A stretch of 64,000 nucleotides of DNA from a virus: the UHGV virus genome UHGV-1351772; one strand, given 5' to 3'. The notes beneath the pieces are model-generated. The model saw only the letters and a program-made list of their open reading frames with translations. It made no database searches and had not been told where the DNA came from. Positions 3,681 through 48,432 of this stretch are shown piece after piece. A program made the position numbers and the translations under genes. Position 1 is the stretch's first letter. Each line of letters starts with the position of its first letter.

Positions 3681-3756
3681 TGGCGGGGGTGGGAAGTTTC
3701 GAACTCCCAACCTTCGGTTTTGGAGACCGCTGCACCACCAATTGTGCTACACCCCC
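3681..3756 (-). tRNA. tRNA-Trp (anticodon CCA), 76 nt with encoded CCA end
   Basis: Hand-folded cloverleaf. Acceptor stem is GGGGGTG/CACCCCC and D stem is GCAC/GTGC with a GG in the loop. The anticodon loop is CT-CCA-AA. T stem is GGGAG/CTTCC with loop TTCGAAA, and the discriminator is G. There is one G-A mismatch at positions 27-43. From memory, the anticodon and T arms look close to E. coli tRNA-Trp. Confidence 0.9.
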
Positions 3757-5727: not shown

Positions 5728-6331
5728 TTTTGAGAGAGTTAAAAATTTAAGATCGATCCGAGAGACTTAGTGTCTCTCGAAGAGTATTAAAAAATTTAAA
5801 AGATCAAAAAACCAAAGCTAGAGAACTACTCAACCTGAATCTTCAGTGTGTGAAGATTCAGTAAGTTGATCAATCCAGCTGATCCGCTAGTACGCGAAGC
5901 GTGAATGTTTTTTTGATCGTCGCGGCGGCCGGTCCGCCGACCCGAGGGTGGGGTGGAACTGGTCGAGGGGAATGCCCCTCAGGCGCTCTCAATCGCGCTG
6001 TAACGAGTTAAACGGGGTTCTGGTACCCAAGTGTACCCCTTGAGGAGATTTTTGCGTCAAAATGCGTTCTAGAGCGTTTTACGATGGGGTGGGTTTTCGA
6101 CCCACTCAGGGATAGGGGTTGGCGTGACAGCTCGAACGACAAAATCGTGGTTTCATGGCGTTGAGTGAAAATAAATTCAAAACCCACAACCAAAAACACC
6201 CTCAAATTCTTCGTAGGAAGCTCTCTGACGAGATAAACGTGGGTAAGGGGTACGAACGTACCGCCTGGAAAGAAAAATGCGTTAGAATCGCTCTCAGCGC
6301 GTTTTTGATTTTTGGGCAAAAAAATAAAACG

Positions 6332-6351
6332 GGGGAGACTTCGGTCTCCCC
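6332..6351 (-). terminator. rho-independent terminator after CDS 6362..7486
   Basis: GGGGAGAC-TTCG-GTCTCCCC is followed on the minus strand by GTTTTATTTTTTT. Confidence 0.85.
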
Positions 6352-6361
6352 AGAATATTTT

Positions 6362-7486
6362 TTACAGAGTCGTCAGTTCTTTTGACGGATAGTACAGTTT
6401 CACATCGACCAAACTGTAACCGGTGGCGTAGAACACCTGATTTCCGACCGAAGCAATAAACCCTTCAGGGTCGATAACGTCAACCGAGAAATCGGAATCG
6501 AATAGCCAGGTTTCTTGTTCCCCTTCCCGTTCGAAAACGGCAGCGTAACGCCCGTATTCTGGGCCTCGGCGGAAACGAAACAGCGTTAATCCTGTCTCAC
6601 GTTCTAAGCCATAAATCACCCCATTTTCTTCGTAGATTTCAGCGCGATTACAGCGTGTAACCGTCAACAACGCAGGCCGTTGTGTCGGGATTGTTTTAAA
6701 CGGTGAAGGCCCATCGTATGTCGTTGAAACCCAATCACCGAGACTGTCTAACGCCAGTGCTCGATACGCGATAGGTGACTTGTAGTTACACAACCTGTTG
6801 CCCTCGGTGTACATCGTGTATTCGATGCGTAACGTAGTACCGATGATGTCGTTCAAACTCAGTTTGTAGTGCGCTAACTGGGCTTGTATACGACAGGACA
6901 GAATTGTACACAGGAAAGTGTGACCCTCTGTAGAACGGCACACAACTCCGTAATCGGTCACTGCCAGTAACGTGGCATCTGTTTTACGGACGGGTTCCAG
7001 GCGAAACACCTCATTTTCAGTTTCTACGAGGAACTGCGAAACCGCTTGGTTTCTGGATTTAGCTTTAATCGTATCGAACACATCACCCGCTTTTACGATT
7101 AACGGTTCTACCACGTTTACCTGAAACGGCAGCGGTTTAGTTGGGTATTGTCCCAACGTTGTAATCGTTACTGAGTTGAGTTCTGGGTCCGATGCGTCAG
7201 GATCACCAGACAACCAATACGTTAGCCATTTCGACAACGTCTGGGGAATGACGCGCGTGGTGTAAAACAGAATTTCGCCATGTAAACCTGCCTCTGCCAA
7301 TTCGCGTGCAAGAAACGAGTTGACCGCGTCGTAGGTACCGTTGCGCAAGATGTCCATACCCCCGACACGAACCAAATCACAAATTACGCCGTGTGGAAGA
7401 ACCCACATTTTGACGTTTTGATTTCGGTCGATGGTACCTTCGCGCAGCATTCTGTGCCAAACGGGTTTACGTAAGTAATTTCTCAT
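6362..7486 (-). CDS. hypothetical protein (374 aa)
   Basis: ATG is preceded by AAAGGAG. No motif recognised. Confidence 0.7.
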   Translation of the reverse strand: MRNYLRKPVWHRMLREGTIDRNQNVKMWVLPHGVICDLVRVGGMDILRNGTYDAVNSFLARELAEAGLHGEILFYTTRVIPQTLSKWLTYWLSGDPDASDPELNSVTITTLGQYPTKPLPFQVNVVEPLIVKAGDVFDTIKAKSRNQAVSQFLVETENEVFRLEPVRKTDATLLAVTDYGVVCRSTEGHTFLCTILSCRIQAQLAHYKLSLNDIIGTTLRIEYTMYTEGNRLCNYKSPIAYRALALDSLGDWVSTTYDGPSPFKTIPTQRPALLTVTRCNRAEIYEENGVIYGLERETGLTLFRFRRGPEYGRYAAVFEREGEQETWLFDSDFSVDVIDPEGFIASVGNQVFYATGYSLVDVKLYYPSKELTTL

Positions 7487-45258: not shown

Positions 45259-46293
45259 TTAGACAGCTATGGGAGCTTTAATTGTGTCGTGCGATTGATA
45301 TCCAACCAATTCGAAGTCTTCGAATTTGTAATCGAAGATGGAATCAGGTTTACGTTTGATAACCAGTTTAGGTAGCGGGTAAGGTTCGCGAGTAAGTTGA
45401 AGTTTTGCCTGCTCCAGATGGTTAGAGTAAAGATGAACATCTACGCCACTATAAACCAACTCGTCTGGAACCATATTGAGTTGTTGAGCAATCATGTGAG
45501 TTAACAACGCGTAAGAAGCGACGTTAAACGGTGCGCCAAGTAGGTAATCGTTGCTCCGCATCATGTAAAAACACGAAAGTTTACGACGAGGGATACCTTC
45601 ACGATCTAAGGTTTCATGAAGTCGTTCTTCGTTATCGATATCTTCGTGGTTAATAAGCGGTGCGTTCGCAAACTTTTCCGGTTCGTTTACTTCGTACCAA
45701 TCCAGTCGTTCAAGCAACGTCATTTCTGTTGTGTAAAATTGGAAATAGTTGTGACATGGATTGAGTGCCATATCGTCCAGGTCACCTACATTCCAGGCAC
45801 TAACGATAATACGGCGGGAGTCAGGGTCTTCACGAAGTTGTTGGATAACTTTACTGATCTGGTCATGTGCTTTTTCATAAACCAAATACGTCGTACTATC
45901 TTCCTTCATATTCCCGATATACTTGTAACCCCGCTGCATTAGTTGTTGTGTACGTCTTACGTCATGACACTCCACAACTTTACAGTCGCGCCATTCCCGC
46001 CACTGGTGTCCGTAGACAGGACCTAAATTCCCTTCTTCATTCGCCCAAGCATCCCAGATTTTTACCCCGTTCTCTTGCAGGTACTTCACGTTAGTGTCAC
46101 CGTTTAAGAACCACAATAGTTCATGAATGATACTTTTCAGGTGAACCTTTTTCGTAGTAACTAATGGGAAACCTTCTTTCAGGTCAAAACGTAGTTGACG
46201 ACCAAATACAGAAAGTGTCCCTACACCTGTGCGGTCTTTCTTGACAACACCGTTATCCAGAATGTCTTGCATTAACGCTAAATACTGTTTCAT
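45259..46293 (-). CDS. thyA: thymidylate synthase ThyA with two insertions (344 aa)
   Basis: Collinear with my recollection of E. coli ThyA: MKQYL..DRTG(V/T)[64 protein letters not shown], and C-terminus IKAPIAV. Confidence 0.9.
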
Positions 46294-46610
46294 TTGTTAT
46301 TATTCCCCATTCGTTTCGTTAAAATGTCTAAATTACGTTGCGCTTGCTCAGGACTAAAAATAATGTTTTCCTGGCTATACGTTACATGGAAATGTTTTTT
46401 GTTAACAATCTCAACCTTAAGGCCACGAACTTCGAATTGCCGTTTAGCCTCTTCAACCTTTTTTGGTGAGATTCTAAGAAGACCCGGAAATAGTTCGTCT
46501 GCAGGAACGTAGTATTTGATTTCCTTAGTTTCGGGAATTAATTCGATTCTATCTAAACTGACGCTTATAATCTCGTCAATCTTTTTCTTTATATTGTCGT
46601 TCACAGTCAT
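46290..46610 (-). CDS. hypothetical protein (106 aa)
   Basis: ATGA overlap with thyA. Confidence 0.6.
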
Positions 46611-46918
46611 TAGATTTTGTCCTTTTCGAGTTCAGTTAAAATTTCAAATAGGTCTGCGTTGGACTGCAGTACGATTTCACTGCCTTCTGCTACAACGGTA
46701 ATTGAAGGCTTCTTACCACGTAGCAAGAACTCCCAACGCATTGTTCTTACGTGGCTGTCGAGTAACTGCTTTAATTTGTGGTTAACTTCGACTTCCAATT
46801 TGCCCAGTAACTGAGGTGTAATAGCTTCGCCTGAGTTTTTGTTATAAAGTGTACGCACTAAAGAACGTAAAGAATAACCAATGCACTGCGAAATTGCCCA
46901 ACCCGAATAGTTTTCCAT
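46610..46918 (-). CDS. hypothetical protein (102 aa)
   Basis: AAGGA RBS and a 1-nt overlap with the next gene. Confidence 0.6.
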   Translation of the reverse strand: MENYSGWAISQCIGYSLRSLVRTLYNKNSGEAITPQLLGKLEVEVNHKLKQLLDSHVRTMRWEFLLRGKKPSITVVAEGSEIVLQSNADLFEILTELEKDKI

Positions 46919-46919
46919 G

Positions 46920-47465
46920 TTAATCCTTCAAAATGTCTTTAAGCTTTAGTTTTGTATAGAACGGAGAACTGCTTAGTTCTTCTGTCCAACTTATACGTCC
47001 GTTCTGTAGAACCCGGTCGAAGATTAGGCCGTTCATCTTTACAATTCTAGCCAACTGATAAAAGAGCGTCGTGAGGTGTAGTCGACGCTCCATTTGTGCG
47101 CGTGCGGTACAACTACGTACCGCTTTGATAGCAAGTACCGCTTCCGGCATCAACGTCACCGCGATTGTCTCAGGATGTTCGTTTTTCCATTTCTTAATGG
47201 CTAGTAGTCTGTGTAACGATTTTTCAAGGGGACGTAAATCCCCGTTATTCATCACGTAAACCAAAGCAGCAAGATCCCACAAGGCAATACCTACTGCTTT
47301 AGCAACAAACAGCCCGTCGTGTGTTGTCGTGGATTCACAGACTTTGCCAATACTTCCGTAAACACGTGCAGTCCATGCGTCTGTCTGTTCGCCAGGTTTT
47401 ATACCCGCGTTATCCAGAAAGTGTTTAAACGCATTAACGTGTTCAGTTAACTGTATTTGTTTCAT
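46920..47465 (-). CDS. MazG-like fold protein with degenerate catalytic motifs (181 aa)
   Basis: Aligns by eye with the MazG at 43193..44023. VNAFKHF..AGI matches VERVKGW..RGI. However EEFGE is replaced by GSIGK and DGIGDA by KAVGIA. Confidence 0.4.
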   Translation of the reverse strand: MKQIQLTEHVNAFKHFLDNAGIKPGEQTDAWTARVYGSIGKVCESTTTHDGLFVAKAVGIALWDLAALVYVMNNGDLRPLEKSLHRLLAIKKWKNEHPETIAVTLMPEAVLAIKAVRSCTARAQMERRLHLTTLFYQLARIVKMNGLIFDRVLQNGRISWTEELSSSPFYTKLKLKDILKD

Positions 47466-47479
47466 TTCCGATACCCGAT

Positions 47480-47944
47480 TTAGTCACGAGACTTTATTTT
47501 AAGGTACGCAACCGCAGCTCCCATGATTGCAATACCGGCACCCCAACCTATCTTTTCTATTACACTCATATCGTCCCATCTTTTCTCTACGTTACGTCGT
47601 TTGGCCTCTTCTGCCCGTTCTCTCCACATCGCTTCGCGTTCCAGACAGCTGGGATTTATTTCCTCTTCACAACGACGTTTCCGTTCTTCTTCCCCAATCA
47701 GTTCTTCTAAATAGAGTCTCGTTTCTTCCACAGCTTGTTCATAGACGTCTATGTGATCAGGAAGAACTCTCCTGTGAGCGGCTTTGTTGCGAACGGAAGC
47801 AATCATGTGGAGTTTCCGTTCGTATTTTGGTTCGAGAAGATGAGCTATGCTTTTGGTCTTCCCATGAAGCCCATGACCGGTACCGCCGAGTTTTTCCACA
47901 AGTTCTTCTACAGAAATTGCAAGATCGAGAATATATCCACGCAT
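47480..47944 (-). CDS. HEPN/DUF4145-like protein with a C-terminal membrane anchor (154 aa; start moved to the ATG with a GGAG RBS)
   Basis: The Rx4H motif SVRNKAAHR is encoded at 47774-47791. A charged coiled segment follows. The C-terminal hydrophobic helix is IGWGAGIAIMGAAVAYL. Confidence 0.45.
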   Translation of the reverse strand: MRGYILDLAISVEELVEKLGGTGHGLHGKTKSIAHLLEPKYERKLHMIASVRNKAAHRRVLPDHIDVYEQAVEETRLYLEELIGEEERKRRCEEEINPSCLEREAMWRERAEEAKRRNVEKRWDDMSVIEKIGWGAGIAIMGAAVAYLKIKSRD

Positions 47945-48004
47945 AATTGTTTCTCCGCTTAAACGTAGTCTTGGGAGACATAAGTTTGTTCCCAACTGTA
48001 AAAA

Positions 48005-48373
48005 TCATTTCAACAAAACAAGATGAATTTGGTATTCGTCATCCGCAGGAGAAGAATAATCGCCAGTTACAGGTAACGTTATATCTTCCAGTAGAGCGTG
48101 GAAGGGTAATCCACGAGCAGCCTCAACAATTCGTACAAGCGGAAAACCCGTTCTTTTAATCCAATTGTAATCGACAAACATAACACCGCCAGGATTTTCC
48201 GAACCTTCCCACACACGAATTTCCACAGTCTTTCCCGAAAAGTTGGCCAGAACGGTGCGCAGTCCTAATTGCACATAACGGGGGAAGGGTACTTCAATAA
48301 CTTGTTTTGGTAAAACAAATTCAGGGAATTTAAAACCGAAACCTTTGGGTGTACTAAAAAACTGAGCTTGCAT
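48005..48373 (-). CDS. hypothetical protein (122 aa), possible ASCH/PUA-like fold
   Basis: FSGKTVEIRVW resembles the ASCH GxKxxExR motif. This is a weak call. AAAGGAG RBS. Confidence 0.3.
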   Translation of the reverse strand: MQAQFFSTPKGFGFKFPEFVLPKQVIEVPFPRYVQLGLRTVLANFSGKTVEIRVWEGSENPGGVMFVDYNWIKRTGFPLVRIVEAARGLPFHALLEDITLPVTGDYSSPADDEYQIHLVLLK

Positions 48374-48404: not shown

Positions 48405-48432
48405 TACCCTACTCCTAGTCAGGAGTAGGGTA
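48405..48432 (-). terminator. rho-independent terminator after the CYTH gene
   Basis: 12-bp stem TACCCTACTCCT/AGGAGTAGGGTA with loop AGTC, followed on the minus strand by TTTTCATTTTTT. Confidence 0.85.

Follow-up and report, generated by a model that had tools for sequence, protein, structure and literature searches.

HEPN domains that cut RNA do so through a composite site formed from two Rx4-6H motifs (PMC3710099; PMC13017515). The superfamily is defined by this motif, which lies at the end of helix 3 or the start of the helix 3-4 loop and usually has a polar residue after the arginine; an acidic residue of helix 2 near the motif, when present, is thought to assist catalysis (PMC3710099). 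Here we describe a 154-amino-acid (aa) protein from the virus genome UHGV-1351772, encoded on the minus strand at positions 47480..47944 of a 64,000-nucleotide (nt) stretch that we call the window, always meaning its full length. The protein joins an N-terminal HEPN-like domain to a predicted C-terminal membrane anchor, and we ask here how it compares with the described systems.

Membrane-associated HEPN domains, including DUF4145 joined to transmembrane (TM) segments, were already described computationally in 2013. Anantharaman et al. listed DUF4145 "TM and SH3" fusions as well as proteins with an N-terminal HEPN domain, two TM segments and a Zn-ribbon, and predicted that such proteins would process RNA on the cytoplasmic side of the membrane (PMC3710099). 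Like those groups, the window protein would keep its HEPN domain in the cytoplasm by an anchor in the inner membrane, and its profile family contains both a double-zinc-ribbon member and a protein with an SH3-type domain (P0198, described below). Unlike them, it is pared down to a single, marginal helix at the C-terminus and a tail of 6 residues; it has no extracytoplasmic sensor, and it is carried by a jumbo phage. Its best Pfam match is DUF4145, a family that includes BxaP and RAZR/PD-T7-4, with which it has an RNxxxH-type motif in common. RAZR and BxaP are abortive-infection effectors of the DUF4145 type, and RAZR is an RNase that requires its R and H residues (PMC13017515). The window protein differs from RAZR in having no zinc-finger domain; it has instead the C-terminal anchor and a GxGxGLH-E-K loop. 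Prophage-encoded HEPN defenses are also known, among them Tha and HepS (PMC11087260; PDB 9oik). The closest functional analogy is the HEPN-TM antiphage system on a Staphylococcus satellite (Fillol-Salom et al. 2022, via PMC11087260 and PMC12724294). Compared by the description given in those later papers, both place a HEPN domain and a transmembrane module on a mobile element, but the satellite system splits them between two genes (products WP_129531117.1 and WP_129531118.1), one for a HEPN protein and one for a TM protein; here a single polypeptide combines the two, and no conserved partner was found.

By structure, the best Foldseek matches were HepT proteins of type VII HepT/MntA systems (PDB 5yep, 6m6u and 7ae8), which place their Rx4H motif in the same way. 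HepT is soluble, however, whereas the window protein is predicted to be anchored, and the two are only 12-19% identical. No adjacent MNT nucleotidyltransferase antitoxin was found at either neighbor (48005-48373 and 46920-47465). Csx28, an accessory protein of Cas13b, is associated with type VI-B CRISPR systems and has an N-terminal TM segment followed by a HEPN-like domain; the window protein has neither that association nor that order of parts. By sequence, the nearest proteins outside the phage clade are encoded on plasmids: WP_096194944.1 (293 aa; P0234 in our set), annotated only as a hypothetical protein, and the 197-aa single-domain P0236. Both are homologous to the phage protein from end to end, are 56-63% identical to it in the HEPN domain, and have the same W-S juxtamembrane motif and GIAIG anchor. 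The plasmid form differs in often having tandem HEPN domains and R in place of H at position 27, and in being followed by a 143-aa hydrophobic protein.

Results

The gene and its selection. The ORF (open reading frame) comprises 154 codons and a stop on the minus strand, with an ATG at 47944 and, 8 nt upstream in the sequence read directly, a GGAG Shine-Dalgarno ribosome-binding site (47953..47956). This bears out the ORF proposed at 47480-47944 in a preliminary description made from the letters alone. A longer reading from a TTG start is possible; the ATG at 47944 is the start methionine in all of the 23 close homologues that were aligned. In total, 57 homologues of the protein were found. 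The ratio of nonsynonymous to synonymous substitution (dN/dS), computed for the N-terminal domain against five relatives, was ~0.15-0.35, and in-frame insertions and deletions were confined to the charged linker. On these two grounds we judge 47480-47944 to be a real gene under purifying selection. A 139-aa ORF (47527-47946, plus strand) runs antisense over nearly the entire gene; it probably arises incidentally from the many Glu and Arg codons of the sense strand.

A divergent HEPN domain with two conserved motifs. AlphaFold2 modeled residues 1-94 (47663..47944, minus strand) confidently, with a predicted local distance difference test score of ~83-95, as four helices (residues 2-18, 25-32, 39-57 and 65-94). 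The preliminary description had proposed an all-helical context and AlphaFold modeling as a check on it, and the model agrees. The fold is the four-helix up-and-down bundle of HEPN proteins, and R52-N53-K-A-A-H57 (47774..47791, minus strand), an Rx4H motif of the catalytic type, closes helix 39-57 at its C-terminal end. The earlier text had put the motif at the same place, correctly for RNKAAH, but these 18 nt do not extend to the full SVRNKAAHR that it quoted. R52, N53 and H57 are invariant in the 23 close homologues and in 31 distant ones. Since RNxxxH occurs 17 times in a six-frame translation of the window, the motif by itself is weak evidence; it is its conservation in relatives that makes it real.

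A profile built from the 85 residues of the domain was then run against 1.84 billion cluster representatives, of which 337 proteins matched at E <= 1e-3. Counts over 147 or so below refer to the best 147 of these 337 relatives, and counts over 150 to domains of the family. RNxxxH is present in 144 of the 147. A second conserved element is the Gly-rich loop between helices 1 and 2, G20-G-T-G23-x-G25-L-H27 (47864..47887, minus strand), which is invariant in both the close and the distant homologue alignments. Across the family, 130/147 representatives have GxxGxG[LIVM], always exactly 32 residues ahead of RN, and 127/150 domains have His at position 27. Residues E13, G23, G25, H27, A49, R52, N53 and H57 are invariant or nearly so. 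From these alignments we define GxGxGLH-E-K as a subfamily-specific second motif, 32 residues upstream of RNxxxH.

Curated profiles recognize this family unevenly. The window protein matches DUF4145 (PF13643) over residues 12-60 with 13.4 bits (E = 0.086) and does not reach the gathering threshold of 23.1. Among the 23 close homologues, DUF4145 was matched by 13 and Abi_2 by 7, all below threshold (best DUF4145 E = 0.013); both families belong to the HEPN clan (Pfam clan CL0291). Two relatives, each reached at E <= 1e-13 by the query profile or by BLAST, score above their cut-offs: P0060 passes DUF4145 with 30.0 bits against 23.1, and P0234, the closest non-phage relative, passes HEPN_RiboL-PSP with 38.6 against 28.4 bits, with secondary matches to HEPN_Swt1, DUF4145, Las1 and Ymh. 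A further relative, P0059, lies exactly at the 23.1-bit cut-off for DUF4145. Weaker matches in the family were to HEPN_Apea, HEPN_RiboL-PSP, HEPN_Swt1 and DUF3644. Vibrio orthologues, which are publicly named "DUF4145 domain-containing protein," match the window protein with a pairwise E of 4e-5, and DUF4145 reaches E <= 1e-3 in only 10/146 family representatives. In Foldseek, the first 13 PDB matches were all HEPN toxins, and two independent fold searches agreed. Other resources returned little: PHROGs, PADLOC and NCBIfam gave no useful match for the 154-aa protein, a profile search of PDB sequences gave just one spurious match (E = 0.35), and nothing among the BFVD viral structures was significant (best E = 0.067).

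The sub-threshold match of the protein itself, the relatives above curated thresholds and the position of the motif at the end of helix 3 all support the HEPN/DUF4145 identity that had been proposed. The preliminary description counted the lack of any HEPN or DUF4145 profile hit against that identity; hits were obtained, yet the protein's own score lies below the DUF4145 gathering score. On this comparative evidence we assign the domain to the HEPN superfamily, as a divergent member of the DUF4145-like branch, in an unnamed subfamily mostly missed by current models.

Linker, anchor and topology. The domain runs into a charged Glu/Arg/Lys-rich linker, predicted to be helical from AlphaFold2 and recognizable by composition and in homologues (residues ~86-122; 47579..47689, minus strand). 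Residues 80-127 contain 16 D/E and 12 K/R, just as the highly charged linker of the preliminary description would require. Within the gene, length varies in frame here and nowhere else, homologues in the phage clade measuring 136-191 aa. Tandem repeats were considered as the cause of this variation and rejected. Homologue alignments place a juxtamembrane motif, W123-D-D-M-S-V-I-E-K131 (47552..47578, minus strand), after the linker; W123 is invariant, and a W/F-S-D/E pattern is common to the nearest subfamily.

The predicted membrane anchor, I132-L148 (47501..47551, minus strand), has the sequence IGWGAGIAIMGAAVAYL and was called from its hydrophobicity and from TM statistics of the family. It is Gly-zipper-like (G133xGxG137xxxxG142), with G137-I-A-I invariant. 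A 6-residue tail, KIKSRD (47483..47500, minus strand), follows and would be periplasmic by the topology proposed below. The single hydrophobic helix of the preliminary description thus lies at residues 132-148, but it is only moderately hydrophobic, and AlphaFold2 models this C-terminal segment at low confidence. For these reasons the anchor call draws mainly on the family: at least one TM segment is predicted in 107/147 representatives (~73%), many of them strongly hydrophobic, and 78 have a single TM, usually C-terminal. In the relative P0198 the TM segment is followed by SH3_3, a cell-wall-binding domain, to give HEPN-TM-SH3_3, which implies that the HEPN domain faces the cytoplasm. From such relatives we infer that the window protein inserts into the membrane with an N-in/C-out topology.

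Relatives on plasmids, in prophages and in Vibrionaceae. The nearest relatives outside the phage clade reside on E. coli and Salmonella plasmids, both small ColE1-type and IncF. On a 3.6-kb Rop/ColE1-type plasmid, the main cargo is a tandem HEPN-HEPN-linker-TM protein together with a 143-aa Gly/Ala-rich hydrophobic protein. This unannotated two-gene cassette (293 aa + 143 aa) occupies positions 683-2066 of NZ_CP148488.1 (locus L098) and 5998-7355 of NZ_CP109877.1 (L099). On an IncF plasmid it lies ~5 kb from the anti-phage gene ppl, with an IS1 element between them. The cassette was present in 5 of 5,426 complete E. coli genomes, always on plasmids, and may be an uncharacterized toxin, defense or bacteriocin-like module. 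Neither the window nor any other locus compared has the 143-aa partner. Two tandem HEPN units ahead of one anchor occur in 16/147 representatives and in the E. coli plasmid proteins.

Elsewhere, a Pseudomonas prophage carries a relative between tail and terminase genes, and cousins are found in other viral contigs. Vibrio, Photobacterium, Grimontia and Enterovibrio have a 121-aa HEPN-TM orthologue (5962-6327 of L078, and ~35 other loci among L054-L094).

The host genome and the accessory slot. Salmonella phage SPN3US and the window are collinear over the stretch gp041 to gp025, and the window's RNA polymerase beta subunit shows 82-87% identity to its counterparts in SPN3US-type phages and in the Erwinia phages phiEaH2, Stratton and Asesino. 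We identify the source as a jumbo phage of the Seoul-like (SPN3US) type. At the DNA level, its nearest kin are missing from the phage collection and have been deposited as "plasmids": these are circular, ~222 kb long, non-mobilizable and assigned to E. coli and Enterobacter (e.g., NZ_CP173450.1). They also turn up as contigs of 221-228 kb in many assemblies of Salmonella, Shigella and E. coli isolates. These deposits match the "persistent virulent" Seoul-like phages that have been described (bioRxiv 10.1101/2024.12.31.630880). The preliminary description spoke of a lytic phage, which is right as to a phage genome but too simple, given that the lineage is found as persistent ~222-kb "plasmids" in isolates.

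The flanks of the HEPN gene are conserved relative to SPN3US, with a gp041 orthologue (58% identity) on one side and a gp038 orthologue (E = 1e-7) on the other. SPN3US fills the interval between these anchors with two other small genes, neither of them related to the two found here, so the HEPN gene sits in a variable accessory slot. One of the SPN3US genes, gp039, was tested as a diverged HEPN homologue and rejected. Within its own clade the HEPN gene is fixed at the same position in every member examined. No homologue was found by megablast or tblastn in 50,697 phage records, and the isolated Seoul-like phages and other chimalliviruses searched are without it.

The other half of the two-gene slot is a 122-aa upstream gene (48005..48373, minus strand), found only in this phage clade; its product has no Pfam, PHROG or other family match. 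Between it and the gp041 orthologue, a consensus scan picked out a terminator-like 12-bp hairpin with a T-run (48405..48432, minus strand), possibly the boundary of a transcription unit immediately ahead of the slot. Downstream lies a split gene on the minus strand, whose 181-aa ORF (46920-47465) and 102-aa ORF (46610-46918) correspond to the N- and C-terminal parts of phrog_10269. The counterpart in SPN3US (gp038) is a single 289-aa ORF. Every related jumbo-phage locus examined has the same fission, which rules out a sequencing error as its cause. The product of 46920-47465 has no Pfam match, and its only PHROG match is phrog_10269, of unknown function. A 106-aa ORF without a family match (46290-46610, minus strand) lies between the split gene and thyA and adjoins the HEPN slot; it is present in the window and in related loci L007 and L009, and absent in L010 and L095. 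The HEPN gene belongs to a co-directional block with nucleotide-metabolism genes such as thyA (45259-46293, minus strand). The thymidylate synthase encoded there is unusually long at 344 aa, and SPN3US gp037 is likewise long at 338 aa. Usual ThyA proteins are shorter, which implies an insertion relative to them. The window carries a single tRNA-Trp (CCA) gene, at 3681-3756 on the minus strand. We also followed an accession quoted in a preprint for chimallin; it belongs to a 240-aa virion protein, and we therefore make no chimallin claim for the window.

Discussion

Building on the gene, its fold and motif, the family architecture and the mobile distribution, we infer dimerization, RNase activity, targets and a biological role as follows. 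The protein would be a tail-anchored inner-membrane protein with its N-terminal HEPN domain in the cytoplasm and R-N-x3-H intact. Since HEPN active sites are composite, two copies would have to pair, and the Gly-zipper anchor and the helical Glu/Arg/Lys-rich (ER/K) linker would probably help them to do so. The invariant R, N and H, together with the naturally occurring tandem-domain relatives, point to a dimer-dependent RNase. The pair would form a metal-independent endoribonuclease that could cut only RNA close to the cytoplasmic side of the membrane, its reach set by the variable linker. As an accessory gene of a persistent jumbo phage, it would exclude or abort competing phages or plasmids, or else enforce growth arrest of the carrier cell. 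A role in conflict is favored by the mobile-element distribution of the enterobacterial subfamily, by the variable slot and by the precedents described above. We give the entire chain, from tethered dimer-dependent RNase to conflicts among mobile elements, roughly an even chance of being correct.

A more specific version of this idea concerns the place where infection begins. Incoming phages, rival chimalliviruses among them, transcribe their first genes from membrane-derived early-infection vesicles (10.1101/2023.09.20.558163). It is conceivable, if a long shot, that the tethered RNase polices this entry zone and cuts the earliest transcripts of rival phages, chimalliviruses included, as they emerge from the vesicles. 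Equally speculative is the corollary that the mRNAs of the resident phage, which leave a central nucleus, would be spared, with the ER/K linker acting as a ruler for the reach of the nuclease. If true, this would amount to spatially gated superinfection immunity and would help to explain stable carrier states.

Several observations weigh against a tethered RNase devoted to conflict. The window protein itself scores under every curated profile threshold, PADLOC (v2) has no match to the HEPN domain, and the fold-search E-values are weak, four-helix bundles being promiscuous in their matches. The window copy departs from the family at two positions, with G28 (within GLHGK) and R58 in place of the consensus Glu (111/150 domains in each case). 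Most close homologues have the consensus Glu at position 28, so the window copy lacks the helix-2 acidic residue and may be less active or act differently. As for the anchor, its hydrophobicity is marginal and it is rich in Gly and Ala, with a Kyte-Doolittle maximum of 1.54 over 19 residues and 1.68 over 17, and a crude Hessa sum of +3.8 kcal/mol. In at least 35 Vibrionaceae species the family member is a core gene, with a conserved neighborhood near rsmD and ftsY. This means that the family is not intrinsically a defense module, and it suggests housekeeping membrane-associated RNA processing for the Vibrionaceae orthologue. When 1,180 neighboring ORFs from 92 loci were clustered, no conserved partner, sensor or antitoxin gene emerged, lineage-specific synteny aside. 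Finally, an unspecific RNase would also cut the phage's own cytoplasmic mRNAs.

The alternative that survives best, though we think it unlikely, keeps the nuclease and changes its purpose. The protein would be a host-takeover or self-regulatory RNase that cuts a class of host or phage RNA at the membrane, such as membrane-translated mRNAs or tRNAs, and so reprograms the cell or slows it into a persistent state; it would serve the phage's own program and would not be a weapon against competitors. The evidence of fold and motif is the same for both explanations, and the fixed position of the gene in every clade member examined, its co-directional block with genes such as thyA, and the core, non-mobile Vibrionaceae members, which suggest a physiological function in membrane RNA, all suit this one. 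It accords poorly with the variable slot, with the absence of the gene from all isolated Seoul-like and other chimalliviruses searched, and with the 56-63% domain identity to proteins of small plasmids, which have no infection program.

Less probable still is a membrane effector that is no nuclease at all, in which the HEPN-like domain oligomerizes or senses and the Gly-zipper forms a pore or perturbs the membrane. Csx28, with its TM segment and divergent HEPN-like domain, forms a pore. The outcome here could be a depolarization like that attributed to Csx28, or a holin/antiholin-type control of lysis timing. Such an effector would fit the Gly-zipper-like anchor with its invariant G137-I-A-I, the 143-aa Gly/Ala-rich hydrophobic protein paired with the plasmid relatives, and the loss in the window copy of the commonly acidic positions 28 and 58.

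Besides superinfection exclusion and host RNA cleavage, the preliminary description also raised the possibility of a decoy, and we consider this last role very improbable. A catalytically irrelevant HEPN mimic would form dead heterodimers with Cas13, Csm6 or HEPN toxins; HEPN domains do act as dimers, and residues 28 and 58 are atypical. RNA-targeting systems are described, in outline, as effective against nucleus-forming phages (10.1101/2022.06.20.496707), which speaks for a decoy. However, the catalytic triad is intact, tethering would hold the protein away from cytosolic targets, and there is no detectable similarity to any specific defense HEPN beyond the superfamily level. The plasmid, prophage and core bacterial members do not fit a dedicated anti-defense role either, and context favors a role in conflict or exclusion over that of a decoy. 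Lastly, a generic helical membrane protein with a coincidental RNxxxH could be argued from the 17 chance occurrences in six frames and the protein's own Pfam E of 0.086, but it is effectively refuted by a motif and a 32-residue spacing to the Gly-rich loop that are kept across 144/147 divergent relatives, by relatives above curated HEPN thresholds and by two concurring fold searches.

To return to the tethered RNase that we favor, HEPN domains at the membrane are not in themselves new. What is new is a phage-borne member with a family-specific second motif, on a jumbo phage. In the literature searched, there appears to be no experimental study of any member of the RNxxxH/GxGxGLH-E-K subfamily or of the membrane-associated groups listed in 2013, and a comparative survey of jumbo phages that we searched does not mention HEPN. 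Among host weapons, RNA-targeting nucleases remain effective against jumbo phages that form a nucleus. It is noteworthy that such a phage should itself encode a predicted RNase, one that would be confined to the membrane and has kin on small plasmids and in prophages. As a concrete, testable candidate, it could account for the way in which persistent "virulent" phages contend with other mobile elements or adjust the cells that carry them. Our comparison further delimits a large HEPN subfamily that has no name of its own, marked by the GxGxGLH-E-K loop, the RNxxxH motif and a C-terminal anchor; most of it escapes the present Pfam, NCBIfam, PHROG and PADLOC models. Because this subfamily includes a conserved core gene of Vibrionaceae, a single biochemical study could annotate hundreds of protein clusters.
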